A stretch of DNA of 24,000 bases from positions 1,040,730 to 1,064,729 of the forward strand of contig CAWJOX010000026.1 in NCBI GenBank assembly GCA_963844545.1, written 5' to 3'. Position 1 is the first letter of the stretch. Each line of letters starts with the position of its first letter. A model generated the notes under the pieces. That model was not told the origin of the DNA. It worked only from the letters and a program-made list of their open reading frames with translations, and ran no database searches. This stretch comes from an uncultured Alphaproteobacteria bacterium (GTDB lineage Bacteria; Pseudomonadota; Alphaproteobacteria; Rhizobiales; Xanthobacteraceae). This document shows, piece by piece, positions 2,426 through 21,536 of this stretch. The translations under genes and the position numbers were made by a program.

Positions 2426-2474
2426 TGACTGTCTCTCTCACTTTTCCTTTGCCGCTTCGCAGGGCAGGACGACG

Positions 2475-4146: not shown

Positions 4147-4222
4147 TCTGCGTTACCTTGTCGGGACCGGCTCGCGGTTATAGCGCAATCGGGAGCTTCG
4201 TCACATGAGGGGGCGTTGACGG

Positions 4223-4245
4223 GCGCTCAGAGTTGCGCGCTCAGA
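4223..4245. promoter_or_regulatory. 9-bp direct repeat GCGCTCAGA x2 (period 14) in the fumA upstream region
   Basis: gcgctcaga at 4223-4231 and again at 4237-4245, 77-99 nt upstream of the fumA start (4146, - strand). Function unknown. Confidence 0.25.
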
Positions 4246-4300
4246 ATCGCCGTGAGGCTCTCCTACAAATTCGTTCACGCGACGCTGGCGCATGATTCAT

Positions 4301-4961
4301 CCCGCCCCGCGAAAGCGGGGAGGGGGGACCGCGCGTAGCGCGGTGGGAGGGGTGCGGAACCCGACGATGTTTCCGTCGGCGCCAGCAAATCTCCACCGCC
4401 GACGCCCGCTCCACCACACTTTGTGTGTCTCGCTCCCCCGCTATCGCGAGGGCGGAAAACGATCTCGTTTTCGCGGCGCGGCTGCGTCCGAGCTTTGCAA
4501 CGAAGCGGAACGAATCTTTTCCCTCCAGAAAAAGGGAGGCGAAGCGTCGAAAGACGCACCATCCATTGGCCGTGCTCGTGCAAGCCCGGATGAAGCGAAG
4601 CGAAATCGGGCTACAACGACTAAGGAAAAAGGAAGCGGAACGCCGACAAACGTGTGTCCAACCTCCGCATCTCGCGATGCGGCGCGCACCCTTTCTCTTT
4701 CCCCTCCCCCGCTTGCGGGGGAGGATTGGGAGGGGGCACGCTCGCCTGTCGGCGTTCCACCACGGCTCTTGCGTCAGCGAGCGAACGCCGACGCTCAGCT
4801 CCAGGCCAGGCTTCCTGGGACTCGGCAGGACGCTCGATCCTGTAAGCTCGCTCCAACCGGGGAGCAAAGACCTTGCGCTTCTTCGTGCATGATCCGGAAA
4901 AGTGGAAACCGGTTTTCCGAAAAGATCATGCACCACTACTCACGGGCGTTACCCGCGCCCG
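4301..4961. repeat. Mosaic of at least 12 different GC-rich palindromic (REP/RIME-like) hairpin elements in a non-coding gap
   Basis: Hand-verified stems: 4305-4320 CCCCGC-gaaa-GCGGGG; 4328-4344 ACCGCGC-gta-GCGCGGT; 4361-4379 CCGACG..CGTCGG; GAAAACGA-tc-TCGTTTTC near 4455-4472; 4521-4539 CCCTCC..GGGAGG; 4544-4557 GCGTC-gaaa-GACGC; 4665-4682 CCGCATC-tcgc-GATGCGG; 4703-4724 CCTCCCCCGC-tt-GCGGGGGAGG; 4748-4792 GTCGGCGTTC..GAACGCCGAC; 4806-4818 CCAGG-ctt-CCTGG; 4885-4933 (listed separately below); 4943-4961 CGGGCG..CGCCCG. The long ORFs here (231 aa on -, 241 aa on +) are low-complexity translations of these repeats. Confidence 0.85.
4885..4933. repeat. 49-bp element with 10-bp perfect terminal inverted repeats (GTGCATGATC...GATCATGCAC) and an inner hairpin
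   Basis: gtgcatgatc-cggaaaagtggaaaccggttttccgaaaa-gatcatgcac. An inner CGGAAAA..TTTTCCG stem is present. From memory this resembles a dispersed intergenic repeat seen in Bradyrhizobiaceae genomes; this was not checked. Confidence 0.7.
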
Positions 4962-5204
4962 CCTGTCCCAGTCCAGGGAACGCACCTCCCAGACCGGTCA
5001 TAGTGCCGGCCGGATGATGCCCGAAGCCGCTCCAGCGCGGATTGCAAAACCGCGCGGGAGCACCGCACTCGCTCCGTGTTCAGGTGTGCCTCGAGAACAC
5101 GACCCTTCAAGATGAGCGAGATGTGTGCCATGTAACATAACCTAGTCACCACGTCAAGGACATTTTGTCCGCCGATCGGCGACGACAAATTACGAGGATT
5201 GAGC

Positions 5205-5227
5205 AAAAAAGCGTGCTGTTAACGCGC
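5205..5227 (-). terminator. Weak candidate intrinsic terminator at the end of mazF
   Basis: The - strand reads GCGCG-ttaacag-CACGC followed by TTTTTT. The 5-bp stem includes one G-U pair and the stop codon sits in the loop. The stem is short, so this is low confidence. Confidence 0.3.
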
Positions 5228-5551
5228 GAGGCCGAGAACGAGCAGTAACGCGCTGTCTAAGCGGTCGCTGGTCAAGTTATCGATGATTCCGATCACCGCT
5301 CGTATCCGAGCGCGAGGGATCGCCAGCACTCTATCCGTCATGATTTGGGAACGGACGCGAAGTCCATTGCTGTCCGCAGCCTCAACGATTGGTCTGATGG
5401 GCAGCTTTTCGACGATTTCGGATGTTATCGGACAAGCAAGCACCGTTGTGGTGGTACCACCCAATTCATCAGCTTGAACAACCACCGCCGGACGAGGTCT
5501 ACCGAGTTCGCCATAAGCGACGATGACGACGTCGCCGCGTTTCACCGCCAC
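5219..5551 (-). CDS. mazF: PemK/MazF-family type II toxin (endoribonuclease fold)
   Basis: 110 aa: MAVKRGDVVIV...GRPRPAVVVQAD...VLACPITS...RPIVEA...GLRVRSQIMTDRVLAIPRARI is a typical PemK/MazF pattern. The GTG start overlaps the antitoxin stop (GTGGCGGTGA). Confidence 0.85.
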   Translation of the reverse strand: MAVKRGDVVIVAYGELGRPRPAVVVQADELGGTTTTVLACPITSEIVEKLPIRPIVEAADSNGLRVRSQIMTDRVLAIPRARIRAVIGIIDNLTSDRLDSALLLVLGLAR

Positions 5552-5787
5552 TCGCTCGTATCGTAGATCGCCTCAATCCACGCATCGATCGGGTCGTTCT
5601 TTGGATGCCGAGCGAGTAACTTGCCCTGCCGGCGGAGATCGGCCCGTACCTGCGGATCGCGCACGTCGGGCACCCAGTGCTGAACAGGGCGCAGGCCTTG
5701 CGCGCGCAACCGCTTGCGCCGGGCGCTCATTCGCTCCATGGCGGTCTTAGGTCCATTCTTTGGTCGCGGCGTGGTCGCCATGACCAT
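5542..5787 (-). CDS. mazE: MazE-family antitoxin (DUF3018-type)
   Basis: ...RRKRLRAQGLRPVQHWVPDVRDPQVRADLRRQGKLLA... matches the R-rich / GLRPVQxWVPD signature of DUF3018/MazE antitoxins that pair with PemK toxins. Start chosen at ATG 5785-5787 (MVMATT); ATG 5779-5781 is equally possible. The upstream part of ORF 5542..5841 is probably untranslated. Confidence 0.8.
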   Translation of the reverse strand: MVMATTPRPKNGPKTAMERMSARRKRLRAQGLRPVQHWVPDVRDPQVRADLRRQGKLLARHPKNDPIDAWIEAIYDTSEWR

Positions 5788-5803
5788 CCGTAACATGTTA
5801 CGG
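5788..5803. promoter_or_regulatory. Perfect 16-bp palindrome CCGTAACATGTTACGG abutting the mazE start; candidate TA operator
   Basis: Verified self-complementary by hand. It lies immediately 5' of the antitoxin start codon on the - strand, where type II TA systems usually autoregulate. Confidence 0.5.
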
Positions 5804-5880
5804 ACAATGTTGCAACGCTCCGATTGCGTGTTCGGACGCAACGGGGAAAGCCATCCCTAATGTCGCAGCCGCAGCACGGC

Positions 5881-7686
5881 TCACACATCCACCTTCAGCG
5901 CGGCGATAAACGCCTCCTGCGGGATGTCGACCTTGCCGAACTGGCGCATGCGCTTCTTGCCTTCCTTCTGCTTCTCCAGAAGTTTGCGCTTGCGCGTCAC
6001 GTCGCCGCCGTAGCATTTCGCGGTCACGTCTTTCCTGAAGGCGCGCACGGTTTCCCGGGCGATGATCTTGCCGCCGATCGCGGCCTGGATCGGCACCTGG
6101 AACATGTGCGGCGGGATGAGTTCTTTCAGCTTCTCCGCCATGGCGCGGCCGCGCTGCTCGGCGCGTGTGCGGTGCACCAGCATCGCCAGCGCGTCCACCG
6201 GCTCGCCGTTGACCAGCATCTGCAGCTTCACCAGATCGGCCGGTTTGTAGTCGGTGAGGTGGTAGTCGAACGAGGCATAGCCGCGCGAGACCGATTTCAG
6301 GCGGTCGTAGAAATCGAACACCACTTCGTTGAGCGGCAAATTGTATTTGACCATGGCGCGATTGCCGACGTAGGTCAGCTCCTTTTGCTCGCCGCGGCGG
6401 TCCTGGCAGAGCTTGAGCACCGCGCCGAGGTATTCATCGGGCGTCAAAATGGTCGCCTCGATCCATGGCTCCTGCATTTCCTCGATGTGGTTCGGGTCCG
6501 GCATGTCGACCGGGTTGTGAATCTCAAGCTGCTGGCCGTTCCGCAATTTGATCTTGTAGATCACCGACGGCGCGGTCGCGATCAGGTTGAGATTGAACTC
6601 GCGCTCAAGCCGCTCCTGGATGATCTCGAGGTGGAGCAACCCGAGAAAGCCGCAGCGGAAGCCGAAGCCGAGCGCCGCCGAGGTCTCCATCTCATAGGAA
6701 AAACTCGCGTCATTGAGCCGGAGCCTGCCCATGGCGGCGCGGAGCGCTTCGAAGTCGGCGGCATCGACAGGAAACAACCCGCAAAACACCACGGGAATGG
6801 CGGGGCGGAAGCCGGGCAGCGGCGCAGCGACCGGCCGGCGCTCATCGGTGATGGTGTCGCCAACGCGGGTGTCGGCCACTTCCTTGATCGAGGCGGTGAG
6901 GAAGCCGATTTCGCCGGGTCCCAGTTCGTCGCGCTCGACACGTTTGGGCGTGAACACGCCGACGCGATCGACCTCATAGGAGGCGCCGGTCCCCATCATG
7001 CGGATGCGCTGGCCCTTCTTCAGCACGCCGTCGACGACGCGGAACAGCACGACCACGCCGAGATAGGCGTCGTACCAGCTGTCGACGAGCAGCGCCTTGA
7101 GCGGTGCCGCGGCGTCGCCTTTGGGCGGCGGCAGTCGATGCACGATCGCTTCCAGCACCTCTGGGACGTTCAGCCCGGTCTTGGCCGAGATCAGGATCGC
7201 GTCGGAGGCGTCGAGACCGATCACGTCCTCAATCTGCTGCTTGACCTTGTCGGGCTCGGCGGCCGGCAGATCGACCTTGTTGAGCACCGGCACGATCTCG
7301 TGGTTGTTGTCGATCGCTTGGTAGACGTTGGCTAGCGTCTGTGCCTCGACGCCCTGGCTCGCATCGACAACCAGGAGCGAGCCTTCGCAGGCGGCGAGCG
7401 AGCGGTTGACCTCGTAGGCGAAATCGACATGGCCGGGCGTGTCGATCAGGTTGAGCACGTAATCCTTGCCGTCGCGGGCGCGATAATTGAGCCGCACGGT
7501 TTGTGCCTTGATGGTGATGCCGCGCTCGCGCTCGATATCCATCGAATCGAGCACCTGCTCGACCATTTCGCGCGCTTCGAGTCCGCCGGTGAGCTGGATC
7601 AGCCGGTCGGCGAGCGTCGATTTGCCATGGTCGATGTGGGCAATAATCGAGAAATTACGGATGTTTTCGATGGGCACTGCAGTCAT
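5881..7686 (-). CDS. lepA: Translation elongation factor 4 (LepA/EF4)
   Basis: 601 aa from [29 protein letters not shown], with G motifs DTPGHVDF and NKVDL, and a LepA-specific C-terminus ...[34 protein letters not shown]. It is the 3' two-thirds of the artefactual 1051-aa ORF 5881..9036. Confidence 0.95.
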
Positions 7687-7732
7687 GCGGCGCAGATAAC
7701 ACTCGCATTCCACAGCGGCAAGCTCATCCCAT

Positions 7733-7868
7733 CCTCTCCCTTGCGGGAGAGGCGACAAGTCCGCGACGGCGGACTTGTCGGTGAGGGTCGAGTTTGATTG
7801 CGGCGGTGCGTACAGGCCCTCACCCGCCTCGCGTTCGCTCGGCGTCCTCCCCCGGAGCGGGAGAGGGA
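7733..7868. repeat. Four consecutive REP-like hairpins between the GT2-GtrA stop and the lepA start
   Basis: 7733-7752 CCTCTCCC-ttgc-GGGAGAGG (perfect); 7753-7780 CGACAAGTCC-gcgacggc-GGACTTGTCG (perfect 10 bp); 7781-7823 GTGAGGG..CCCTCAC; 7847-7868 imperfect CCTCCCCC..GGGAGAGG. The first and last are variants of the 4703-4724 element. Confidence 0.8.
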
Positions 7869-7871
7869 AGT

Positions 7872-9036
7872 CTACCGCTGCCGCCAGACGAAGGCGGCGC
7901 TGACCACGAAATTCCAGACGGTCCCGATCACGGCTCCGCCGAGGCCCGCGATCCACCACACGCGGTCGTAGTCGTAGATCCAGGTGGCGATGCCGACGTT
8001 GGATATCGCGCCGATGGCGCAAATCACCTGGAACCAAATGAGTCCGGTGACGAAGCGCCAGCCGGTGAGCCGCTGATCGCGGTAAGTGAACAGATTGTTG
8101 AGGACGAAATTCCAGGCGATGGCGCCGACAGTGGCAAGCGCCTGCGCCGCACCGAATGACAGCGCGGCGGCGAGAAAAGCTGCTCAACAGGATCAGGTGC
8201 ACCGCAATGCCGGTCAGCCCGACGAGGCAGAATAAGATGAAGCGTGCAGAGATGGCATCTTTGGTCAGCTTCGCCGTCACCAGCGCCGCGAAATCGAGCG
8301 CGATCTTCGAGTCGAGTTTGCTCTCACCGTGCTGACGCTCGCGAAACGTGGACGGCAGCTCGACGGTACGCAGGCGGCCACGGCCGGTCGCCAGAATGTC
8401 GAGCAGGATCTTGAAACCCTGCGAAGAGAGCTCAGGGGCGAGCGTTTCGAACACATCGCGCCGGATCATGAAATGGCCGCTCATCGGATCGGTGAGATCG
8501 ATCCCGAGCAGAAGCCGCACCAGCGTGTTGGACCAGCGGCTGACCCGTGAGCGCTGCTTCGAGAGGCCCGCGGCGGAGCCGCCGTAGAGATAACGGCTGG
8601 CGACGGCGAGATCGGCGCGGCCGTTGCGCAGACAATCGAGCATGCCGACGAGGAGGCTTTCGTCGTGCTGCAGGTCGGCATCCATGACGGCGACGTAGCG
8701 GGCCTGGCTTGAGAGCATGCCTTCGAGGCAGGCGCCGGCGAGGCCGCGGCGGCCGATGCGGCGGATACAGCGCACCCGGCTATCGGTTTCGCCAATGGCG
8801 CGCGCGGCCGCCGCGGTGCCGTCGGGAGAATTGTCGTCGACGAATACGACTTCCCAGTCGCAAGAGACGAGAAGGCGCGCGAGTCGCTCGACCAGGATCG
8901 GGATATTGGCCCGCTCATTGAAACTCGGCACGACGATGCTGAGTTCAGGGGCTGGGCGCACCACCACAGTCGTTTCTGCTCGCGCCGTGGTCGCTGCGCT
9001 TCCCGCTGGAATGTCGCTTGCCGCCGATTGAGACAA
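7872..9036 (-). pseudogene. GT2 glycosyltransferase (polyprenyl-phosphate sugar synthase, Dpm1/ArnC-like) fused to a C-terminal GtrA-like membrane domain; frame broken once near 8179-8190
   Basis: N-terminus: [14 protein letters not shown]...[12 protein letters not shown]...[11 protein letters not shown]...[12 protein letters not shown] (GT2 DxD and catalytic signatures). After ...[12 protein letters not shown] the frame degenerates. The adjacent frame reads [72 protein letters not shown]...[17 protein letters not shown], which is GtrA-like, with its stop at 7872-7874. The span is 1165 nt (3n+1). Start at TTG 9036 or an internal GTG is uncertain. Confidence 0.8.
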
Positions 9037-9168
9037 TTCCGCTGGCCTCCAATTTCCGCGCCTTTATTGCTCTATCCGCGGGCCCACGCTAGTAGCTTTT
9101 GCACGTTGCGGAGGCATGGTTCCGCCCTTCTTAGATCGGCCGACATCGGCTGCTCGTCGAGAGTGATT

Positions 9169-10732
9169 ATGTCGACCGTCGGACGTGATCACACCGGCCG
9201 GACACCTTCGGGGTTCGCCGGTTTCGTCGACCGGCTCAGCCAACCGGGCCGTCGTTTTATCGTAGAACATACCGAAGGCACGATCGTGCTTTCGGCGCTT
9301 GTTGCATTCGTTGTGCTGTGGATGGTCTTCGACGTCGTCTCTTTGGCGTCGGTGGACTTGCATCCCGATTGGAGCGAAGCCGCGCTTTGGGCGCACCACT
9401 TCGCCTTCGGCTACAAGCATCCGCCGATGACGGCCTGGCTGTTCATGCTGTGGTTTGCGGTGTTTCCGCGCCAGGACTGGGCAGCGGATCTTTTGAATGT
9501 GCTGGTCGTTGCGATGGGTCTCGGCGTCACTTGGCGTTTGTTGCGCGATCATCTCGACAAGAATCGCGCGCTGTTAGGGCTCGTCGCGCTGGTTCTGATT
9601 CCGCTCTACGACATCAAGACCGCGATCCTGAACGCCAACACCGTCATGATTCCGTTCTGGGCGGCGGCGCTGTTGTTTTACCTGCGGGCTCGGCGCGGCC
9701 TGGGCATCCTCGATGCTTTCCTCGCCGGAGCATTCGCCAGCCTCACGGTTTTCGGCAAATACTGGGCGCTGTTTCTGGTTGCCGGCATGGTGGTTGCCTC
9801 AGTTGTCGGCCCGGGGACGCGACGCTTCTGGCGCTCGCCTGCGCCCTACGTCATGGCGCTGGGGGCTGCAATCGTCATTGCGCCTCACGTCTGGTGGTTC
9901 GTGAGCGAGCGCGGCGGCACCAGTTACGCGTTCATGCGCGACACCGTCGTCGTCAGCCAGTCATTCGGGGCGGCGCTGCTGCGCTCGGTACGCTACCTTA
10001 TCAACTCCGTCGCCTACGCCATCGTGCCGATTGTTTTTCTCGCCGCGCTTCGGCCAAGCAGGGCGGCGCTCGCTGAAATGATCTGGCCGCGCGACGACGA
10101 CCGCCGGCAGGCATTGTTGTTGTTCTTGGTTCCGCTTGCTGTTGCCGGCGTTGGTCAATCTGGCCATTCCGTATCGGTTGACCGCGGATTGGACCTATCC
10201 GAACTGGGCTCTGCTGCCAGTCGTCCTCTACGCCTCGCGCGACATAATAGTCGATGAGCGCACGGTGGCGCGCGGCCGGCCTCGTTGCGCTGGCGGTGAC
10301 CGTGGCCGCTATTGTTGTGTCGCCGGTGGTCGCTTACGCCAGGCTGACGCGGGCCGATGACCAATATCGAGCCCATTTCCGCGAAGTTGCACGGCTCGCG
10401 GATCGCCTCGCGGGCCAGCCCGTGCGTCTATTCTGGGGCTCCCCGAAAATCACTGCGGGGCTGCCGTTCTATTTGCCAGAGGCCAGTCCTTTGATGGTCG
10501 GCCCATTGTCGGCGGAAGGCCGCGCAGCAATCGGCGCTCACGGACTTGTCGTGGTTTGCCTCAGCACCGATGCGCCGTGCCGAAGGGTCGGTGCGGAATT
10601 TGCGGCCGCCGGCGCGCACGCGGCAAACGCCAGGTTTACGCGCAGCTTCCTGGGCGTCTCGGGCGAGCCGATGAATTTTGAAATCACCGTGGTGCCGCCG
10701 GCTCCGACGCCGGCGCGCACCACGAAGCAATC

Positions 10733-10739
<7 letters not shown>
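9169..10739 (+). pseudogene. GT39/ArnT-like (PMT_2 family) membrane glycosyltransferase with a C-terminal periplasmic domain; frame broken twice (about 10120-10140 and 10251-10262)
   Basis: Polytopic protein from ATG 9169 (MSTVGRDH...). Contains ...HPDWSEAALWAHHFAFGYKHPPMTAW...GKYWALFL..., typical of ArnT/PMT-like GT-C enzymes. The hydrophobic sense passes from frame 1 (..ALLLFLVPL) to frame 2 (LLPALVNLAIPYRLTADWTYPNWALLPVVLYASRDIIVD) to frame 3 (SARWRAAGLVALAVTVAAIVVSPVVAY... to the stop at 10739). The span is 1571 nt (3n+2), consistent with two 1-nt insertions. Confidence 0.75.
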
Positions 10740-12177
<1,438 letters not shown>

Positions 12178-12250
12178 CTAGTAATTCCAAGGCGTTCCGG
12201 GAAATGGCCGCTGGGCTGATGCTACAGCCGGCTCCAGCGCGCGGCACTAA

Positions 12251-12274
12251 AGACATAAAGATACCTTTATGTCT
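12251..12274. promoter_or_regulatory. Perfect 10-bp inverted repeat AGACATAAAG-atac-CTTTATGTCT
   Basis: Verified by hand. It lies 95-118 nt upstream of the ahcY start, at the left edge of the A/T-richer segment. Could be an operator, a bidirectional terminator remnant or an insertion boundary. Confidence 0.35.
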
Positions 12275-12321
12275 ATCCTCAACGGAATTCGCCGATAACG
12301 TCTACGGACAGCATTGGCATC

Positions 12322-12510
12322 GTGTCCGATGTAGTGAAAGAAACTCTCTCCGAAAGCATCAGCGCAGCTAGCGACACGGCAATTATTTTTGCTTGTGACC
12401 GCTCCCAATATACCCAAGACGGGACATTGCAGAACAACTGCGTCTTTTCGATGCAATGTTTCAGAGACAGTAGCGGCCTGCCCCCGAATGGGGATAAGTC
12501 CGTTTCGTGA
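12322..12510 (+). CDS. Candidate small ORF (62 aa, Ser/Thr/Cys-rich), translationally coupled to the downstream membrane protein
   Basis: MSDVVKETLSESISAASDTAIIFACDRSQYTQDGTLQNNCVFSMQCFRDSSGLPPNGDKSVS. Its TGA stop overlaps the GTG start of the next gene (GTGA at 12507-12510). Third-position G+C is about 58% by hand count, against about 45-50% for the local bulk sequence. No convincing SD and no recognisable family. An overlapping antisense ORF (12279..12521) also exists. Confidence 0.25.
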   Translation: MSDVVKETLSESISAASDTAIIFACDRSQYTQDGTLQNNCVFSMQCFRDSSGLPPNGDKSVS

Positions 12511-13637
12511 AGCTCCGACACAAATCCCCGAACGAACCGTGGCGGTGGATGCTTGCGATCGATTTCATCATCGCGATCTGCGGAGTTCTTTACACCATTT
12601 TTGTCGATTCGCCGCGTTTAGCATCCTACATGCAGCTGCTGGTGACGTATCATTTCGGCTTTACCAGGCGCGCTCTCGTCGGGACGATCGTCTCCGGGTT
12701 CACGGACGTTGTTCCGTTCTGGTATCTCCACGCCATTGCCGTCGCCGCCTGGATTGCCACACTGATATTGTTCGTTGCGGCTTTCCGGAAAATCTATGGG
12801 TTTAATCGGAAGAATTTTGCGCTGTTTGTTTTCGTGTTCGGCTCGCCTTTCTTCCTCAAGAATTTCGCGATCTCACTTGGGCACTTTGACATATTCGGCT
12901 GCCTTTGGGCGCTTGTCGCTCTGCTGATCCCGGTCGGCGGGTTTTATCCGCTGATCGTCACGGCCGGCTGCATCGGCTTGATCCTGATACACAATCTCCA
13001 TTTTCTTTTGTATGTGACAACGATCGGCTTCATCGTGTTCGTGCGCTACGGGGTGTTGAATGGTCTTTCGACCGGCAAGGTCATTTATGGCCTAGTTCTC
13101 ATTTCTCTGGTTTCGGGCGTCTTCATCGTAACCGCTTTTTTCGGCAGCATGCCTGTTCCGCGGGAAACGTTTTTTGCTTACGTGAGCGCCCGCGCGTCGG
13201 TTCAGCTCGATCCGCAAAACGCCTGGATGTGGTACTCGACCATCTCTCAGGAGATTCAATCCACCCGGGATCACGCCTATATCACGATGATCCGGCTGCC
13301 GGTCTATGTCGTGTTGATCGCCCTGCATTGGCCGATTGCGCGTTACATCAAAACCATGATCGTCGCATTGCCGACGCCGTTTTTGCGGACTGTTTCAGTC
13401 GCGTGGTTGGCCGGCATATCGCTGGGCTACGTTGCGATCTTCGTGGTCGCGTATGACTATTCGCGGTGGGTCTCAAGCTGGGGCGTCTGTATGTTTTTGA
13501 TGATGCACGCGCTTCGGCTGCTGCCGTCGAGCGCGAAGGGCGAGGACCCGCCGATACGCCCCGACGACACCGGAAACCTGGTGCTGGGCTGGATCGTTAC
13601 AGTGATACCGCGGGTGGGAGTGACAATCCCATTTTAA
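12507..13637 (+). CDS. Polytopic inner-membrane protein (roughly 9-10 predicted TM segments), no family recognised
   Basis: 376-aa ORF with repeated 18-25 residue hydrophobic stretches (LAIDFIIAICGVLYTIFV, LHAIAVAAWIATLILFVAAF, FALFVFVFGSPFFL, LWALVALLIPVGGFYPLIVTAGCIGLILI, FLLYVTTIGFIVFV, VIYGLVLISLVSGVFIVTAFF, LPVYVVLIALHW, VAWLAGISLGYVAIFVVAY, WGVCMFLMMHAL). Clear codon periodicity, but much lower G+C than neighbours. Start is GTG 12507, or ATG 12549. Confidence 0.8.
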   Translation: MKLRHKSPNEPWRWMLAIDFIIAICGVLYTIFVDSPRLASYMQLLVTYHFGFTRRALVGTIVSGFTDVVPFWYLHAIAVAAWIATLILFVAAFRKIYGFNRKNFALFVFVFGSPFFLKNFAISLGHFDIFGCLWALVALLIPVGGFYPLIVTAGCIGLILIHNLHFLLYVTTIGFIVFVRYGVLNGLSTGKVIYGLVLISLVSGVFIVTAFFGSMPVPRETFFAYVSARASVQLDPQNAWMWYSTISQEIQSTRDHAYITMIRLPVYVVLIALHWPIARYIKTMIVALPTPFLRTVSVAWLAGISLGYVAIFVVAYDYSRWVSSWGVCMFLMMHALRLLPSSAKGEDPPIRPDDTGNLVLGWIVTVIPRVGVTIPF

Positions 13638-13665
13638 TCGACAAGGCGCAAACACGAAAGCCGAC

Positions 13666-14289
13666 ATGCAAGAGGTCATCAAATCGCTCCGCGAGCTCGC
13701 CGTGGCCGAGCAAGGATGCACGCGATGTCCACTTTATCGCGACGCCACCCAGGTTGTTCCCGGTGAGGGTCCAAGCCATGCCGCGCTCATGCTGGTCGGC
13801 GAGCAGCCCGGTGACAAAGAGGATCTCGCCGGCAAGCCGTTTGTCGGTCCCTCCGGCCGAGTTCTCGACCAAGCACTGAGAGATGCCGGAATAGACCGCG
13901 ACCAAGCGTTTGTCACCGGTGCGGTCAAGCACTTCAAACACGAAATGCGGGGCAAGCGCCGCCTGCACAAACGTCCTAACAATTACGAGATCGAACGCTG
14001 CAAATTCTGGCTTGATTTCGAGCGGCGTCTGGTCAAGCCGTCCATGATCGTTGCGCTGGGTGTGACAGCGGCGCGAAGTCTGATCGGGCGCACGGTGACG
14101 ATCGCCAAGGTACGTGGCAAGCTGATGGAACTTAACGACGGGACAAACCTGATTGTCACCGCGCATCCATCCGCGCTGCTGCGCATCAAGGACGAGGGCG
14201 AACGGCACAAAGCCTATCGAATGTTTGTCGCCGACCTCAAAGCCGCCGCAGGAAGTACTCGTGGGTCGGTGCGCGGCGAGGCGGGCTAG
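13666..14289 (+). CDS. udgX: UdgX-type uracil-DNA glycosylase superfamily protein (family 4-like)
   Basis: 207 aa: CTRCPLYRDATQVVPGEG...LMLVGEQPGDKEDLAGKPFVGPSGRVLDQAL...FVTGAVKHFKHEMRGKRRLHKRP...ERCKFWL...ALGVTAA...VTAHPSALLR. GEQPG (nt 13798-13812) and KRRLH (nt 13954-13968) correspond to the GEQPG motif A and KRRIH loop that define mycobacterial UdgX. This is from my recollection of that sequence; no alignment was run. Confidence 0.85.
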   Translation: MQEVIKSLRELAVAEQGCTRCPLYRDATQVVPGEGPSHAALMLVGEQPGDKEDLAGKPFVGPSGRVLDQALRDAGIDRDQAFVTGAVKHFKHEMRGKRRLHKRPNNYEIERCKFWLDFERRLVKPSMIVALGVTAARSLIGRTVTIAKVRGKLMELNDGTNLIVTAHPSALLRIKDEGERHKAYRMFVADLKAAAGSTRGSVRGEAG

Positions 14290-14292
14290 CGA

Positions 14293-14643
14293 TTAGTCCT
14301 TCGGTGGCGTCTCCCCCGCGCGCGGTGCGGATCGTGCCACCCCGGCCTGCGTGAGCGCCGCGCCGATCTGTTGCATGCGGTTGATCAGATCGGCCGCAGC
14401 GGCCGGCGGCAACACCAGACGGCAGGCCGGATAACGGCGGCCCGTAATCGGCATATTGGGCTTGACCTCATCGATACGCGTCACGGCGAATTCGATCCGC
14501 AGCGATTGGCCGTCAAAGATAAGACCGCTGACCGAGTCAGCAAAGGTCTCCGGAATATCTGGGCGATCGACGTACCGGATGGTTGCGGGCTGCCGTTGCG
14601 CTGCTGACGCCGGCGCGCCTGGACTGGTCTGTTCGTCTGCCAT
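14293..14643 (-). CDS. Conserved-looking hypothetical protein (116 aa) directly downstream of ptsH
   Basis: ATG at 14641-14643 is preceded by GAGGGGA (SD) 7-8 nt upstream. High G+C coding bias. Sequence: MADEQTS...IRYVDRPDIPETFADSVSGLIFDGQSLRIEFAVTRIDEV...RLVLPPAAAADLINRMQQIGAALTQAG. Vague resemblance to DUF3467-type proteins, not established. Confidence 0.6.
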   Translation of the reverse strand: MADEQTSPGAPASAAQRQPATIRYVDRPDIPETFADSVSGLIFDGQSLRIEFAVTRIDEVKPNMPITGRRYPACRLVLPPAAAADLINRMQQIGAALTQAGVARSAPRAGETPPKD

Positions 14644-14680
14644 CAGTTTTCCCCTCGGGCGTGTCCTTGAGTGATCCGGG

Positions 14681-15013
14681 TCAATCGTCTTCGCCAAAAC
14701 GCGTCTCGATGAGACTCGTCAATGCATCGACGACTTCTGCCGCTTGTCGGCCGGTTGCTTCCACAGTGATCGAAGTTCCTGGGGACGCCGCCAGCATCAT
14801 CAGCCCCATGATCGAAGTGCCGCCGACGATTTCACCGCCGCGCATGACGCGGACGTCGGCGTCGAATTTTTCCACCGTTTGCACGAACTTGGCCGACGCT
14901 CGCGCATGCAGCCCCTTGCGATTGCAGATGCAAAGTTTGCGAATTATCGCGCCATCGCGAAACGTCTGCTCATTGAGCAAGTTCTCGTCACCGCGGTGAG
15001 CGGGTGTGCTCAT
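14681..15013 (-). CDS. ptsH: HPr-family phosphocarrier protein (HPr/NPr of the incomplete alphaproteobacterial PTS)
   Basis: 110 aa from ATG 15011-15013. Contains NRKGLHARASAKFV (active-site His) and VGGTSIMGLMMLAA (regulatory Ser region), and ends FGEDD. The start overlaps the manX stop (ATGA). Confidence 0.9.
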   Translation of the reverse strand: MSTPAHRGDENLLNEQTFRDGAIIRKLCICNRKGLHARASAKFVQTVEKFDADVRVMRGGEIVGGTSIMGLMMLAASPGTSITVEATGRQAAEVVDALTSLIETRFGEDD

Positions 15014-15411
15014 TTTCCACTCAGAACCCGGCTGGCGATGGTCACATATTTTCGTCCCGCGTCCTGGGCGGCGGCGACCGCCTCGGCGAGCGGACACTCA
15101 TCGCGAACCTTGGCGAGTTTGACCAGCATTGGAAGATTGATGCCTGCGAGCACTTCGACTTTCGGCCGGCTCATGACCGAGATAGCGAGGTTCGACGGCG
15201 TGCCGCCGAACATGTCGGTCAGAATGGCGACGCCATCGCCGCTGTCGACGCGCTTGACCGCTTCGATGATGTCCTTGCGACGCTCTTCAACGTCGTCGTC
15301 GGGTCCGATGGTGACTGCTTCAATCTGGTCCTGTGGGCCTACCACGTGTTCCAAGGCCGCGCGGAACTCGACAGCCAACCGCCCGTGGGTGACAAGCACA
15401 AGACCAATCAT
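15010..15411 (-). CDS. manX: PTS EIIA component, mannose/fructose family
   Basis: 133 aa from ATG 15409-15411: MIGLVLVTHGRLAVEF (phospho-His), ...ILTDMFGGTPSN... . The longer 170-aa ORF start (15522) adds a non-conserved leader. Confidence 0.85.
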   Translation of the reverse strand: MIGLVLVTHGRLAVEFRAALEHVVGPQDQIEAVTIGPDDDVEERRKDIIEAVKRVDSGDGVAILTDMFGGTPSNLAISVMSRPKVEVLAGINLPMLVKLAKVRDECPLAEAVAAAQDAGRKYVTIASRVLSGK

Positions 15412-15655
15412 GGAACACCCCGCGGGCGCGTCCCGGTTGCACCGCACGAAAGGGTGCTCATCTTGACCATCCGAAGCCCAAGCGCAAGAGGCATTTTTGG
15501 CGGAATTTGGCGGTTGCTGCATTGCGGTAGCGCAAAGTCGAATTCAGATTAATGGCGCCGCCAATGACCCGCTTCGGCACGGTCCGCCGCGGAAAGCGCC
15601 CACCGAGTTTAACGGTGTTAGGGTTAACCAATCCCCAATAAAGCCGATATCGCCA

Positions 15656-16117
15656 CTAACTCCAATTATTTGCAGTTGAATTGAGGAGCGCCAGCACGCT
15701 GGGCCGGGCCGCTAAATCCTTTGCAACGGGCAGTCGTGGTACAAAGACACCGTTAATTTCAATACGTCGCTGATCGGCAGTCGGCAATCGTCGGCCGTCC
15801 GGCGCATCGAGGTCGACCACCAGTCCGACAACGGCACGCGGCTCGTGCACTAGGCGCAGAAGCCCGACGCCGCGCACCTCGATCAGGCCGGCAAGCGCCT
15901 CGGGGGCGCGAGCCAGCAAGCGTCCGCCGATGGCTGCGAGATGGACGCGATCGTCGGCGACCAACCTCGCAAAGCGCAAAGTGCCGGTGCGTGCTGCCTC
16001 GAGAAGTTCGAGTGCAAGCCGTGATTTTCCGGATGCTGAAGGTCCGCGGATCAGTACGGCTCGCGCACCAACCAGCACGGCCGAGGCGTGCACAGTCGCT
16101 AAATCAGCCGCCATCAC
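15656..16117 (-). CDS. hprK: HPr kinase/phosphorylase, short alphaproteobacterial form lacking the N-terminal domain
   Basis: 153 aa with P-loop GPSASGKS and LIEVRGVG. The start overlaps the chvG stop (ATGA at 16114-16117). Confidence 0.85.
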   Translation of the reverse strand: MMAADLATVHASAVLVGARAVLIRGPSASGKSRLALELLEAARTGTLRFARLVADDRVHLAAIGGRLLARAPEALAGLIEVRGVGLLRLVHEPRAVVGLVVDLDAPDGRRLPTADQRRIEINGVFVPRLPVAKDLAARPSVLALLNSTANNWS

Positions 16118-17955
16118 ATCGCCGGCAGGCGCACGATAAAGCGCGCACCGGCAATCGTCGGAGTGCCGTCTGCGTCTGGCGCGCCGGTTCTGTTCTCTGC
16201 CCAGATGGCGCCGCCGTGCGCGTCCACGATCTGCTTGGAGATCGAAAGCCCGAGTCCCGAGTTTTGGCCAAAGCCGTGTTGCGGGCGATCGGTATAAAAG
16301 CGTTCAAACACTTTTTCGAAAGCGTCGGGCGGCACCCCGGGACCGTCATCATCGACATAGATTTCAATATTGCTCTTCAGCCGCCGGCAGGTGACGCGCA
16401 CCGTGCCTCCCGCCGGCGAGAAAGAGCGCGCATTCTCGATCAGATTGTCGACGACCTGGCCGAGGCGGGAATCGCGTCCGGGCACCTGGAATGCACGCAC
16501 ACCGCCGCCTTCGAAACGCAGTGTGACGCGCACACCGTCGTCGCGCTTCACTTCGTTGGCGACCGCAACAACGGTATTGAGGAGCTTTGCAATGTCAACC
16601 GGCGCGGCTTCCTGGCGTTGCAGTTCGGCGTCGAGGCGGCTGGCGTCGGAAATGTCGGAGATCAGCCGATCGAGCCGTTTGACATCGTGCTGAATGATGG
16701 CGAGCAGGCGCCCGCGGCTCTCGTCGGTTTTAGCAACCGGCAATGTCTCGACTGCTGAACGCAGCGACGTCAGTGGATTTTTCAGTTCGTGCGCGACATC
16801 GGCGGCAAAGCTTTCGATCGCCTCGATTCGGCTATAGAGCGCGTTCGTCATGTCGCGCAGCGTGCCGGAGAGATGTCCGATCTCATCGCGCCGCCGTGTG
16901 AAATCCGGAATCTCAACCCGCGACCGGATGCGGCGGCGCACGCTCTCCGCCGCGTCGGCCAGCCGTCGGACCGGCTCGGCAATGGTGCCGGCCAACAGGA
17001 TCGAGAGCACAACCATGACGCTGGCGGCGACAATGAAGACCTTGAGAATGGCAAGCCTCTCGGCCTCCACCATGTCGTCGATGTCAGCTCCTTGCGTCGA
17101 CAGCATCAGCGCGCCGCGCACGGCGCGGAAGCGCTGCACCGGAACCGCGACCGACACGATGACGTCGCCGCGGTCGTTGATGCGCACCATGCTGGCATTC
17201 TGACCGCTTAAGGCCTGCGCAACCTCGGGATAGCCGCGGCCATTATCGGCGCGGAGTTCCCGATAGAGCGGTAGATCACCCCGTCCGAGCCACATGCGCG
17301 CTGCGATAAAGGCGCGCTCGAAGAAACTCGGTTTCTCGGCGTTCGGCGGCGGCAAGTCGAAGCGCAACACATCGCCTCGTCCAAACAAATTGCGGCTGTC
17401 GACCAGAAGTACGCCGTCGCGATCATAGATGCGCGCGCGGGTTTTTGTCGGCGACACAAGACGGCGCAAGACCGGCGCCACGCGCTCCGGATTGATCGGA
17501 AAATTGATCCCGTAGAGCGCGTCTTCGGATGGACCGTAGCTCTCGCCGGGATGGAGCTCGAGCAGTTTGTCCGGATCGATCGTGATCGATGAATCGGTTT
17601 CGACCGTTGCCGAGGCTGCAATCGCGCCGGCAATGATTTGCCCCTGTACCAGGAGACTCTGCACCCGCGCGTCGATCAGGCCGGCGCGGAACTGAGAAAG
17701 AAATGTGATGCCGATGGAGAGAGCCAGCAGTCCGGCGACGTTCAGAAAAACGATGCGGCGGGTGAGGCTCGAAAAGCTCTGGTTGACGAAGAATTGCCAC
17801 GCCCGCTGCAGCCAATTGGCAACTCTGGCGAGGCCGCGCGGTCGGGCAGGCGCCGAAGCCTCATCGAGACCATCGGCCTCGATTTGGCCTTCGACCGGAG
17901 TCGATGGCGGGGCCTTCCTTTCGGCCCCTGCGAGTTCTGCGGTTCGATCGAGCAC
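16114..17955 (-). CDS. chvG: Sensor histidine kinase of the ChvG/ExoS/BvrS family
   Basis: 613 aa with an N-terminal TM segment, a large periplasmic domain, a second TM/HAMP region, H-box FAADVAHELKNPLTSL, and N/G boxes (NLIENARSF, DDGPGV, GLGLSI). Its position between chvI and hprK is diagnostic of the family. GTG start. Confidence 0.9.
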   Translation of the reverse strand: MLDRTAELAGAERKAPPSTPVEGQIEADGLDEASAPARPRGLARVANWLQRAWQFFVNQSFSSLTRRIVFLNVAGLLALSIGITFLSQFRAGLIDARVQSLLVQGQIIAGAIAASATVETDSSITIDPDKLLELHPGESYGPSEDALYGINFPINPERVAPVLRRLVSPTKTRARIYDRDGVLLVDSRNLFGRGDVLRFDLPPPNAEKPSFFERAFIAARMWLGRGDLPLYRELRADNGRGYPEVAQALSGQNASMVRINDRGDVIVSVAVPVQRFRAVRGALMLSTQGADIDDMVEAERLAILKVFIVAASVMVVLSILLAGTIAEPVRRLADAAESVRRRIRSRVEIPDFTRRRDEIGHLSGTLRDMTNALYSRIEAIESFAADVAHELKNPLTSLRSAVETLPVAKTDESRGRLLAIIQHDVKRLDRLISDISDASRLDAELQRQEAAPVDIAKLLNTVVAVANEVKRDDGVRVTLRFEGGGVRAFQVPGRDSRLGQVVDNLIENARSFSPAGGTVRVTCRRLKSNIEIYVDDDGPGVPPDAFEKVFERFYTDRPQHGFGQNSGLGLSISKQIVDAHGGAIWAENRTGAPDADGTPTIAGARFIVRLPAM

Positions 17956-18100: not shown

Positions 18101-18796
18101 TTATTCCTTAAAACGATAGCCGACGCCGTACAGCGTCTCGATCATATCGAATTCCACATCGCTTGCCTTGAACTTCTTGCGCAACCGCTTGATGTGGCTG
18201 TCGATGGTGCGGTCGTCGACGTAGACCTGATCGTCGTAGGCGGCATCCATTAACGCGTTGCGGCTTTTCACAACGCCCGGCCGGCTCGCCAAAGCGTGGA
18301 GGATGAGAAATTCGGTGACGGTCAACGTCACCGGCTCGTTCTTCCAGGTGCAGGTATGGCGTTCCGGGTCCATGCGCAGCAACCCGCGTTCCAGAACCTT
18401 GCTGTCGGCTTCCTTCGGTGCGGCGCCATCCTTTGGCGAGGCGCGCCGCAGTACGGCCTTGACCCGCTCGACCAGGAGCCGCTGCGAAAACGGTTTGCGG
18501 ATGAAGTCGTCGGCGCCCATTTTCAGCCCGAACAATTCGTCGATCTCCTCATCTTTTGAGGTGAGGAAAATCACCGGAAGGTCGGACTTTTGCCGCAGCC
18601 GCCGCAACGTCTCCATGCCGTCCATGCGCGGCATCTTGATGTCAAGGATGGCGAGGTCAGGCGGGGCGGTTTTGAAGCCGTCGAGCGCAGAAGCGCCATC
18701 GGTATAGGTCGTGATGCGATAGCCTTCGGCCTCGAGCGCGATGGACACCGAGGTCAGGATATTGCGATCGTCGTCGACCAGAGCGATTGTCGGCAT
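18101..18796 (-). CDS. chvI: OmpR-family response regulator ChvI/BvrR
   Basis: 231 aa: [14 protein letters not shown]...[14 protein letters not shown]...[29 protein letters not shown], plus a winged-helix C-terminus ...[13 protein letters not shown]...[11 protein letters not shown]. Confidence 0.93.
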
Positions 18797-19922: not shown

Positions 19923-21536
19923 GTGAAGGAAACAGGTTTGCGAAATAGTACTCACGGGGCTGACAAATTCGGGCTGAAAGGCCTCGCGGCAATTCACTGG
20001 AATTTACCCGACGCCGCGCTGGTCGAGCACGCGATCGCCGATCGGGAAGGTTTCTTGGTTCAGGGTGGCGCCTTCTGCGCCGAAACCGGTGTCCATACCG
20101 GCCGCAGCCCTAAAGACAAATTCGTTGTCGCCGACGGACAGACCGAGAAATCCGTATGGTGGGAGAAGAATGGCCGTCTTTCGCCCGAGAAATTCCAGTT
20201 GCTGTTCGACGATTTCATCGCCCACGCCAGGGGCAAGACTCTGTTCGCTCAGGACCTCTATGGCGGCGCCGATCCGCGATACCGCATCAAGACCCGCGTC
20301 TACAACGAGCTTGCCTGGCATTCGATGTTCATTCGCGCGCTGCTGATCAGGCCTGACCGCGCCGAGCTTTCACACTACGTTCCCGACTTCACCATCCTGT
20401 CGCTGCCCTCCTTCAAGGCCGATCCGAAACGCCACGGCGTGCGCAGTGAGACGATCATCGCGCTCGACTTCACCCGCCGCATTATTTTGATTGGCGGCAC
20501 GTCCTACGCCGGCGAGATGAAAAAATCCGTGTTCACCACGCTCAACTATTATCTGCCGGCCGAGAGCGTGATGCCGATGCACTGCTCCGCCAACGTCGGA
20601 CCGGATGGCGACGTCGCGCTGTTCTTTGGTTTATCCGGTACCGGCAAAACGACGCTCTCGGCCGATCCCAAGCGCACCTTGATCGGCGACGACGAGCACG
20701 GCTGGGGTCCGCAGGGCGTGTTTAATTTCGAGGGCGGCTGCTACGCCAAATGCATTAAGCTTTCCGCCGAAGCGGAGCCGGAGATTTACGCCACCACGAA
20801 GCGCTTCGGCACCGTGCTTGAGAACGTGGTGTTCGATCCCGAGACGCGCATTTGCGATTTCGACGACGACTCAAAGACTGAGAACACGCGCGCAGCGTAT
20901 CCGCTCGAATTCATCCCAAACGCGTCACGCACCGGCCGCGCCGGTATGCCAAGGAACATCGTGCTTCTGACCGCCGATGCCTTTGGCGTCATGCCGCCGA
21001 TCGCCAAGCTGACGCCGGCGCAGGCGATGTATCACTTTCTGTCCGGCTACACCGCCAAGGTCGCGGGCACCGAGAAAGGTCTCGTCGGCGTCCAGCCGGA
21101 ATTCTCTACTTGCTTCGGGGCGCCGTTCCTGCCGCGCCACCCTTCCGTCTACGGGAATCTCTTGCGCGAATTGATCAGCGCGCACGAGGTCGATTGCTGG
21201 CTGGTGAATACCGGCTGGACCGGCGGCATCTACGGCGTTGGCCGGCGCATGCCGATCAAGGTGACGCGGACGCTGCTCACCGCGGCTCTGAACGGTTCGC
21301 TCAAGACCGCCAAATTCCGCACTGACCCCTATTTCGGCTTTTCGGTGCCGACGCAGTTGACCGGGGTCGAGCCGCACCTGCTCTATCCGCAGAAGACCTG
21401 GCAGAACAAACTCGAATTTGACCAGACCGCGCGTAAGCTGGTCGATATGTTCCAGAAGAACTTTGTCCAGTTCGAGGACCACGTCGAAGCCGACGTTCGC
21501 GCCGCCGCGCCGGAAGTGCGCATCGCCGCGGAGTAA
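19923..21536 (+). CDS. pckA: Phosphoenolpyruvate carboxykinase (ATP)
   Basis: 537 aa with [22 protein letters not shown], the kinase-1a motif [21 protein letters not shown] and NTGWTGG. GTG start. Confidence 0.95.

Follow-up and report, generated by a model that had tools for sequence, protein, structure and literature searches.

Genes between ahcY and hpr

The window, by which we mean the whole 24-kb stretch of DNA analysed here, comes from an uncultured member of the Xanthobacteraceae and contains a segment in which additional genes separate ahcY from hpr. The ahcY gene (10733..12156, minus strand), encoding S-adenosylhomocysteine hydrolase, forms the left flank; it is spread over three frames in this assembly, with apparent frameshifts near 11,680-11,745 in a three-frame translation, and is 97-99% identical to the intact gene for a 473-aa AdoHcyase at the related locus L003. 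On the right lies hpr/ptsO (14681..15013, minus strand; PF00381), the HPr/NPr gene, which is a 110-aa gene in relatives and the last gene of the chvI-chvG-hprK-manX-hpr block. Between them are a divergent intergenic region, the gene of a polytopic membrane protein, udgX and a gene that we call hyp116. A GT2-GtrA and PMT_2 pair is found two genes away from the membrane gene; like ahcY, both genes of the pair show apparent frameshifts in this assembly. Elsewhere in the window, ORF 2341-4146 encodes a fumarase of class I, and ORF 5881-9036 contains lepA.

The 376-aa ORF of the membrane protein shares 4 nt with a candidate small ORF of 62 aa (12322..12510, plus strand) and is followed, after a spacer of 28 nt, by the 207-aa ORF of udgX; this geometry, given in the original prediction, is borne out by the ORF coordinates. 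The small ORF had been counted as a member of a cassette, a role that did not survive comparison with relatives. It has no match in Pfam, NCBIfam or PADLOC, even at E<=10, and relatives have no gene called at its position. In a tblastn search the sole match, 29 residues long at 52%, was in L003/L004; L005, L008 and other relatives gave none. Judged in this way, it is probably not a gene. The variable segment does include a gene that had been overlooked, hyp116 (14293..14643, minus strand), which encodes a conserved 116-aa hypothetical protein; gene calls in relatives give it 112-120 aa. It is co-directional with hpr, 37 nt downstream of it, and convergent with udgX. Its 12 orthologues are 62-93% identical, with 41 invariant columns. 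Searches of Pfam, NCBIfam and PADLOC, even at E<=10, gave no match for hyp116, nor did a profile search of PDB, and the PDB fold matches of a single-sequence structure model (pLDDT 66) were meaningless. With this gene (14,293-14,643) included, the extra DNA extends from the candidate ahcY operator to hpr, ~12,275-14,680, rather than over the 12241-14292 that had been proposed.

The udgX gene (13666..14289, plus strand) encodes a 207-aa protein (PF03167) which, as had been suggested and as its sequence indicates, is a true member of the UdgX family of uracil-DNA binding/cross-linking glycosylases. It scored 282 bits with TIGR03914, where the cutoff is 189.95, and 131 bits with the family-4 model TIGR00758; its best PDB match was M. 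smegmatis UdgX (6ajo, E=1e-52, residues 7-195). All three characteristic motifs are present and align to those of the M. smegmatis protein. Motif A of UdgX is GEQPG, with Q replacing the A/G of family 4 (PMC10359453), and is found at residues 45-49; the R-loop KRRIH, which carries the cross-linking histidine (PMC4787834, PMC10359453), appears as KRRLH at residues 97-101; and motif B, HPS(S/A)(L/V)(L/V)R (as in PMC10359453), appears as HPSALLR. The N-terminal CxxC is aligned too. By analogy with M. smegmatis UdgX, the protein would excise uracil and cross-link through His101. The two differ in the R-loop residue noted above and in their setting: the glycosylase gene here stands alone, adjoins the membrane-protein gene and is divergent from ahcY. 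UdgX homologues in Bradyrhizobium and Rhizobium have already been noted (PMC4787834).

The polytopic membrane protein of 376 aa (12507..13637, plus strand) belongs to a large unnamed family. Its description as family-less was upheld: Pfam, NCBIfam and PADLOC gave no match, even at E<=10 or with ten distant family members. One homologue bears a precomputed PF27463 label, which our Pfam search did not reproduce. The family has at least 229 close homologues and 570 cluster representatives (E<=1e-3) and occupies at least five different genomic settings. The AF2 model (pLDDT 84, pTM 0.87) is all-helical and its top PDB fold matches are PglB, ArnT and Pmt4, none of them significant (E>0.3, TM 0.3-0.41); a profile search of PDB with the family returned nothing. 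Residues Y48, G51, R55, S113, P114, D128, P276, D317, R320 and G371 are invariant family-wide. D128 and D317 are the acidic residues among them, D67 being nearly invariant among close homologues only.

GT-C enzymes (ArnT, PglB, PMT, Gtr-type) are membrane glycosyltransferases that work with polyprenyl-phosphate sugar synthases of the GT2/GtrA type. Possible parallels in the membrane protein are its all-helical, polytopic form and, for part of the family, a GT2/GtrA gene nearby. In four loci (L093, L095, L096, L097) members of one clade of the family precede a GT2-GtrA gene by 21-77 nt, and in L113 a family member is divergent from such a gene; in the ahcY-locus clade the GT2-GtrA gene is 3.5 kb off, and the hslU/smr and ssb/uvrA contexts have none. 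The protein differs from GT-C enzymes in that it is without a periplasmic domain and its first loop, where a conserved catalytic acidic residue would be expected of a GT-C enzyme, has no family-wide invariant acidic residue, and an hhalign comparison of the family with PMT_2 gave a probability of 3.6%, which is no sequence support for the idea. The GT-C-like glycosyltransferase reading is a weak hint that draws on the modelled fold and on the GT2-GtrA neighbours. We would put forward only tentatively, with the balance leaning against it, the proposal of an enzymatic role, perhaps that of a GT-C-like transferase whose substrate is a polyprenyl-phosphate sugar from the GT2-GtrA synthase. A sizeable family of membrane proteins is flagged here, together with a testable glycosyltransferase hypothesis.

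Base composition of the segment

The original prediction saw a lower-GC insert of about 2 kb, and the hand counts of G+C on which it drew (26/60, 28/60 and 26/60 in the segment, 43/60 in ahcY) are exact. The dip is real: nowhere in the 24-kb window is GC lower than at 12,150-13,350, where it is 0.50-0.56, the mean of the window being 0.62. The minimum over 300-bp windows is 0.500 (start 12,251), and that over 1200-bp windows is 0.527, also at 12,251, which is ~4 sd under the mean of 0.618 (sd 0.023). The dip is, however, confined to ~12,150-13,350, that is, to the intergenic region (12157..12506, GC 0.52) and the membrane gene, and udgX is normal at 0.61.

This pattern can be attributed to a hydrophobic membrane protein and an A/T-rich divergent promoter region. 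Because the membrane protein consists to 50% of F/I/L/V/M/W/Y, the coding strand of its gene is T-rich and its GC1 (0.52) and GC2 (0.41) are lowered. Hydrophobic membrane proteins depress the composition of these two codon positions, and synonymous sites alone are informative. With the 24-kb window as reference, GC3 was 0.714 for the membrane gene and 0.683 for udgX, both within the range of the neighbours (0.61-0.86, median near 0.72), and this test for a genomic island revealed no deviation. The overall GC of the membrane gene was 0.549 where 0.571 was expected from its amino acids, and its amino-acid-corrected residual was not above that of PMT_2 or hpr. The gene is still 2 GC points under the amino-acid prediction (z = -2.9), which counts against the explanation that we favour. 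The orthologues of L003, L005 and L089 repeat the pattern, as do members of the family located at unrelated loci, with GC3 tracking each host. Contrary to what had been supposed, the low GC is not a signal of foreign DNA; most of the deficit is predicted from amino-acid composition. A low-GC patch beside broken synteny mimics horizontal transfer, yet is not a sign of it.

The palindrome upstream of ahcY

A perfect 10-bp inverted repeat with a 4-nt spacer, AGACATAAAG-ATAC-CTTTATGTCT, lies at 12,251-12,274, ~95 nt upstream of the ahcY start. The pair AGACATAAAG/CTTTATGTCT is unique in the window, had 0 matches in window shuffles and is invariant across six aligned loci. The intergenic region is otherwise poorly conserved in that alignment, with a mean column identity of 54% and the palindrome as its one invariant block. 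Among the 42 loci having the ahcY 5' end, 36 possess a palindrome of the same form ([GCT]A[CT]ATAAAG-N4-CTTTAT[AG]T) 85-160 nt upstream of ahcY, insert-free loci included. The repeat thus exists as described, but since it is kept regardless of any insert it does not bound one, and we reassign it to a widely conserved ahcY control element.

By analogy, the palindrome is probably a control element upstream of ahcY and a candidate SahR-type operator. The motif of SahR, whose regulon is that of the SAM cycle, is a 20-bp palindrome, the core SahR regulon includes ahcY, and SahR orthologues are known in Xanthobacter and Azorhizobium (PMC4239095). The palindrome here shares with the SahR operator a length of ~20 bp, a position upstream of ahcY and conservation across alphaproteobacterial families, and the assignment goes by these traits. 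No SahR gene is found within the 24-kb window. In an Rfam scan no family attained its gathering score, so that neither an SAH riboswitch nor any other RNA was identified ahead of ahcY; a sigma-70 consensus scan of the ahcY-membrane gene intergenic region found no site, a scan that is uninformative for this bacterial group.

The membrane gene and udgX would be co-transcribed from the region carrying the palindrome. In L010 and L014, which have udgX and no membrane gene, the palindrome precedes the start codon of udgX by no more than 43-45 nt. We regard it as unlikely that genes in this position fall under an SAH-responsive ahcY operator. Were they to do so, udgX (here the membrane gene and udgX) would be induced along with the methyl cycle, and a uracil-DNA cross-linking protein would be tied to one-carbon/folate stress, a condition that raises dUTP misincorporation.

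The hpr-ahcY junction in related genomes

The expectation that ahcY and hpr adjoin in related genomes proved correct. In 13 related loci, among them those of Pseudolabrys, Ancylobacter, Microvirga, Bauldia and Rhodobiaceae, 119-174 nt separate the two genes, and in Brucella ptsO and ahcY are in one operon (PMC9491525), a 16-gene operon that includes chvI(bvrR)-chvG(bvrS)-hprK-ptsM(manX)-ptsO(hpr)-ahcY (PMC9491525; PMC2937029). The Brucella block from pckA/chvI to ahcY has the same genes, order and orientation as the window, with pckA upstream and opposite. The difference is that only a pseudogene lies between hpr and ahcY in Brucella, whereas ~2.4 kb with three extra genes, two of them on the opposite strand, intervenes here; for that reason read-through from hpr to ahcY would be unlikely. 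Because hpr and ahcY are directly adjacent in relatives, we infer that the genes in the window are a derived insertion. In the converse scenario the three genes were ancestral to a wider group and were lost many times, with the tight hpr-ahcY adjacency being derived. Patchy distribution does need several losses under any scenario, but the adjacency occurs with equal spacing and palindrome position in deep lineages (Microvirga, Ancylobacter, Bauldia, Rhodobiaceae, Pseudolabrys), the gene order of Brucella is the same (PMC9491525), and the membrane-family members of other lineages are located at other loci. Unrelated cargo, moreover, fills the junction in other lineages: DctM with an ABC-F ATPase, a Sel1 protein, an M20 peptidase, a GDSL lipase, cytochrome b561 and glutathione peroxidase. 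Ancestral presence is accordingly very improbable, and the junction in Hyphomicrobiales is better described as a recurrent slot for lineage-specific genes.

Where the genes of the window recur, the shared order is lepA, GT2/GtrA, PMT_2, ahcY, membrane gene, UDG, (hyp116), hpr, manX, hprK, chvG, chvI, pckA. It is kept in relatives whose membrane proteins are 78%, 68%, 65%, 64% and 60% identical to that of the window, and also in 12 metagenome loci. The genes are present in some relatives and absent from others at this conserved junction, and the parts vary independently. The membrane gene, udgX and hyp116 show all eight possible patterns of presence and absence, among them udgX with hyp116 (L010, L011, L014), udgX alone (L013, L016), hyp116 alone (L009), the membrane gene with udgX (L088, L091), the membrane gene with hyp116 (L104) and the membrane gene alone (L106).

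These observations bear on the view that a foreign, lower-GC operon of three genes was recently inserted as a unit, with the inverted repeat as its left end. Such a cassette would fit the co-directional, tightly spaced genes, the location in the lowest-GC stretch of the window and the absence of the genes from many related genomes, in which hpr and ahcY adjoin. That view is largely refuted, and we give it hardly any credence: GC3 lies in the normal range and amino-acid composition accounts for the dip, the repeat is an ahcY element that loci lacking an insert also carry, conservation of the small ORF is wanting, the genes are found separately in every combination, and the arrangement persists down to 60% membrane-protein identity with the proteins monophyletic. 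Our searches also agree with the statement, already made in the original prediction, that signs of mobility are absent, finding no tRNA within the window, no direct repeats flanking the segment and no integrase/transposase domains in neighbouring genes. What stands of the horizontal-transfer reading is that genes were added at the junction; the addition was not recent, did not involve one cassette and is not of foreign composition.

The membrane protein and UdgX might instead form a selected two-gene module, for example for membrane-associated uracil-DNA handling or defence against uracil-containing foreign DNA. In ~20 loci of the clade the two genes run in one direction, spaced by 16-160 nt, and a sister clade of the membrane protein adjoins ssb and uvrA, although ssb-uvrA is a common housekeeping junction and that adjacency may be coincidence. 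A module of this kind is nevertheless quite improbable: udgX is found at the locus without the membrane gene in five cases (L010, L011, L013, L014, L016) and the membrane gene without udgX in two (L104, L106), in ~58 of 80 metagenome loci the family member sits between hslU and smr/mltA and no UDG accompanies it, and PADLOC gave no matches.

We consider it highly probable that the segment consists of old, vertically inherited genes that were kept or lost independently in a naturally variable gap. This is ordinary genome evolution, and nothing here overturns current understanding. The gap between the hpr stop and the ahcY operator/promoter would be a permissive slot in Hyphomicrobiales chromosomes. 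In the proposed ancestral state hpr and ahcY would lie ~130 nt apart, with the palindrome ~35 nt after hpr and ~85-100 nt before ahcY. All cargo would sit between hpr and the palindrome, leaving the ahcY control region intact, and in this uncultured Xanthobacteraceae lineage the slot would have been filled with three unrelated genes (udgX, hyp116 and the membrane gene). These would be old residents, each retained or lost independently, the membrane gene having the synonymous composition of its host. In neighbour-joining trees built on fragments and without support values, the membrane proteins of the ahcY locus are monophyletic (60-100% identity) and sister to the ssb/uvrA clade, and their identities fall in step with ChvG identity. 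The species tree, a neighbour-joining tree of ChvG, ManX and AhcY fragments without bootstrap, is too weak for counting gains and losses. Because the ahcY locus holds one deep clade, the membrane gene appears to have arrived long ago; its source could be a relocation inside the genome, out of ssb/uvrA or hslU/smr, or a transfer from another alphaproteobacterium. The udgX of L013 falls outside the main UdgX clade, a position that could reflect a second gain.

Base composition of the ahcY-hpr segment

The ahcY-hpr insert is an ordinary one, an old and lineage-specific filling of an intergenic slot. A PMT_2-type membrane glycosyltransferase gene (9028-10739, +) and ahcY (10733-12156, -) are followed by a 350-bp intergenic region (12157-12506), the gene for a 376-aa polytopic membrane protein (12507-13637, +), udgX, encoding a UDG-superfamily protein (13666-14289, +), and hyp116, encoding a 116-aa protein without family (14293-14643, -). 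Beyond them lie hpr (14681-15013, -), manX (EIIA-Man; 15010-15522, -), a short hprK (15656-16117, -), chvG (16114-17955, -), chvI (18101-18796, -) and pckA (19923-21536, +). The original prediction named the membrane gene and the UDG correctly, overlooked hyp116 between the UDG and hpr, and saw the lower-GC segment at 12241-14292 as a horizontally acquired cassette. That view is largely refuted: GC3 is normal, the genes vary separately among relatives and the arrangement is kept down to 60% membrane-protein identity.

The hand counts of G+C behind it were all exact on recount and the segment is indeed the GC minimum of the whole window (lowest 1200 bp: GC 0.527, start 12,251; window mean 0.618, sd 0.023), with the dip limited to the membrane gene and the intergenic region before it. 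The codon positions of the membrane gene do not point to foreign DNA (GC1 0.523, GC2 0.408, GC3 0.714): its GC3 and that of udgX (0.683) are within the range of the other genes in the window (0.61-0.86, median near 0.72), and the dip recurs in orthologues. F, I, L, V, M, W and Y together make up half of the membrane protein, and its gene has a strong excess of T on the coding strand (AT skew -0.39 to -0.45). When the protein was recoded with synonymous codons drawn at the frequencies found in the other genes, the predicted GC was 0.571 ± 0.007 against 0.549 observed (z = -2.9), so amino-acid composition accounts for roughly two thirds of the deficit. The residual shortfall is not beyond that of clearly native genes (PMT_2, z = -4.1; hpr, z = -2.1). 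The same dip, of 3-7 points, is found in the orthologues of L003, L005 and L089, where GC3 follows each host genome, and family members encoded elsewhere in their genomes (L090, L096, L150) have it too. The dip is thus a property of the membrane-protein family; in the window it comes from the amino-acid composition of that protein and from a promoter region.

A variable slot and a conserved palindrome

Relatives were gathered by a ManX scan with one genome per species, giving 80 loci ranked by similarity, the nearest being uncultured Xanthobacteraceae MAGs; the window proteins were compared with all loci by tblastn and a neighbour-joining tree was built from ChvG, ManX and AhcY. Spacing between hpr and ahcY is only 119-174 nt in 13 loci, among them Pseudolabrys, Ancylobacter novellus, Microvirga, Bauldia, a Rhodobiaceae chromosome and several Xanthobacteraceae MAGs, and in Brucella ptsO, a pseudogene and ahcY form a single operon (PMC9491525). 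The adjacency that the original prediction gave for many Rhizobiales is therefore ancestral. It is not universal in the family, since Bradyrhizobium loci (L034, L035, L042, L045 and others) have no ahcY within 8 kb of hpr; a distant PMT_2-like gene follows hpr there.

At the junction the three genes are found in all possible combinations: all three (the window, L003, L005, L008, L089), membrane gene with udgX (L088, L091) or with hyp116 (L104), membrane gene only (L106), udgX with hyp116 (L010, L011, L014), udgX only (L013, L016), hyp116 only (L009) and, in many loci, none. Each gene is therefore independently dispensable. Elsewhere in Hyphomicrobiales (L023, L025, L032, L049, L057, L058, L060, L086) the slot, the gap between the hpr stop codon and the ahcY operator/promoter, holds unrelated cargo: DctM with an ABC-F ATPase, a Sel1-repeat protein, an M20 peptidase, a GDSL lipase, cytochrome b561 or glutathione peroxidase. 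All slot cargo with a Pfam match is divergent from ahcY and convergent with hpr. The window's full arrangement, with the whole lepA-to-pckA neighbourhood, recurs in contigs whose membrane proteins are 78%, 68%, 65%, 64% and 60% identical, and the arrangement is also found in 12 metagenome loci. Searches of the segment for a tRNA, flanking direct repeats or an Rfam family found none, in agreement with the earlier failure to see the first two. The segment is most probably an old, lineage-specific occupation of a slot that varies naturally.

The perfect 10-bp inverted repeat at 12251-12274 exists as described, yet it is not the left boundary of an insert, since it is found without any insert. In a six-locus alignment the intergenic region showed little conservation outside an invariant block, AAGACATAAAGA..CTTTATGTC. 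Of the 42 loci that reach the ahcY start, 36 carry the palindrome [GCT]A[CT]ATAAAG-N4-CTTTAT[AG]T at 85-160 nt upstream of that gene, with or without an insert, across Xanthobacteraceae, Ancylobacter, Microvirga, Methylorubrum, Bosea, Rhodoplanes and Hyphomicrobium; in loci with hpr next to ahcY it follows hpr by about 35 nt. Its retention upstream of ahcY regardless of insert marks it as an ahcY control element, and all cargo would have entered between hpr and the palindrome. SahR is an SAH-responsive repressor with a 20-bp palindromic binding site; ahcY belongs to its core regulon, and both Xanthobacter and Azorhizobium possess SahR (PMC4239095). The palindrome upstream of ahcY is therefore a likely candidate SahR operator. 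Where udgX occurs without the membrane gene (L010, 9720-9891; L014, 9731-9926) it is directly divergent from ahcY; its start codon follows the palindrome by 43-45 nt, and just ahead of the ATG the two loci share a short GCATTCTGC motif. This proximity raises the possibility that slot genes may be co-regulated with the methyl cycle. The conserved palindrome and the variable slot are points of modest interest.

Products of the inserted genes

The candidate small ORF (12322-12510, +) has no family match, no gene is called at its position in relatives, and the only tblastn match covers 29 residues (52%) in the closest relative; it is not conserved and is probably not a gene. The ORF overlaps and spacings had been described correctly. 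A conserved PWRW upstream of Met15 of the membrane protein makes the GTG start at 12,507 plausible, and the 4-nt "overlap" with the small ORF incidental.

The UDG had been called UdgX-like and, judged from its sequence, is a genuine UdgX-family protein: it scores 282 bits with TIGR03914 (cutoff 190), its top PDB match is M. smegmatis UdgX (E=1e-52), and its motif A (GEQPG), R-loop (KRRLH, His101) and motif B (HPSALLR) each fit the published UdgX definitions (PMC10359453, PMC4787834). Homology predicts that it removes uracil and becomes covalently attached to the abasic site; homologues from Bradyrhizobium and Rhizobium have already been listed (PMC4787834). No Pfam, NCBIfam, PADLOC or PDB relative of hyp116 was found. 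The gene lies 37 nt downstream of hpr, with its stop codon 3 nt from that of udgX; 41 positions are invariant among twelve orthologues and its presence is not tied to that of udgX or of the membrane gene.

The membrane protein is family-less, as proposed, in that no member of its family (at least 229 close homologues; 570 representatives at 50% clustering, E<=1e-3) has a name, Pfam or NCBIfam family. Look-ups and a metagenome scan yielded five genomic contexts, each its own clade in the protein tree: A, beside ahcY with udgX downstream (60-100% identity to the window protein; monophyletic); B, ssb, OMP, membrane gene, uvrA; C, between hslU and convergent smr and mltA; D, between aspartokinase and GT2/GtrA at four loci (L093, L095-L097; 21-77-nt spacing); and E, adjoining an ABC transporter. 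Context C, with about 58 of 80 metagenome loci, is the commonest home of the family (L114-L173). From these clades we infer that the membrane gene settled beside ahcY once, long ago, and would have been inherited there since that single arrival; its link to udgX is confined to one lineage.

Ten residues invariant across the family, including R55, D128, D317 and R320, suggest an enzyme or transporter. The AlphaFold model, from 53 homologues, is of high confidence (pLDDT 84, pTM 0.87) and all-helical. Foldseek against PDB ranked the GT-C glycosyltransferases PglB, ArnT and Pmt4 at the top, but none of these matches is significant (E 0.3-2.9, TM 0.30-0.41); PDB profile searches found nothing and hhalign against the PMT_2 profile gave 3.6% probability. 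In clade D the membrane gene is immediately 5' of a GT2-GtrA polyprenyl-phosphate sugar synthase gene with no other polytopic transferase nearby, in L113 the GT2-GtrA gene is divergently adjacent, and the window itself has a GT2-GtrA/PMT_2 pair just past ahcY. We tentatively entertain a GT-C-like transferase, a rather doubtful assignment. The unnamed family, with its testable glycosyltransferase hypothesis, is likewise of modest interest.

Apparent gene breaks and a gene-poor stretch

Several housekeeping genes at 5881-12156 appear frameshifted in this assembly: ahcY is split over three frames around 11,680-11,745, PMT_2 is interrupted at 10,254-10,257 (a single 507-522-aa gene in relatives) and the GT2-GtrA gene is fused without a stop to lepA (1051-aa ORF, 5881-9036). 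Assembly indel errors seem more likely than pseudogenes, given that the closest relatives come from long-read MAGs and that comparable fragmentation is seen in L004. Between class I fumarase (2341-4146) and lepA, about 1.7 kb (4147-5880) holds no recognisable gene, a 231-aa ORF there (4241-4936) having no Pfam match. The same stretch contains a local GC dip near 5100-5450 and an imperfect 35-nt inverted repeat at 4637-4671/4724-4758.
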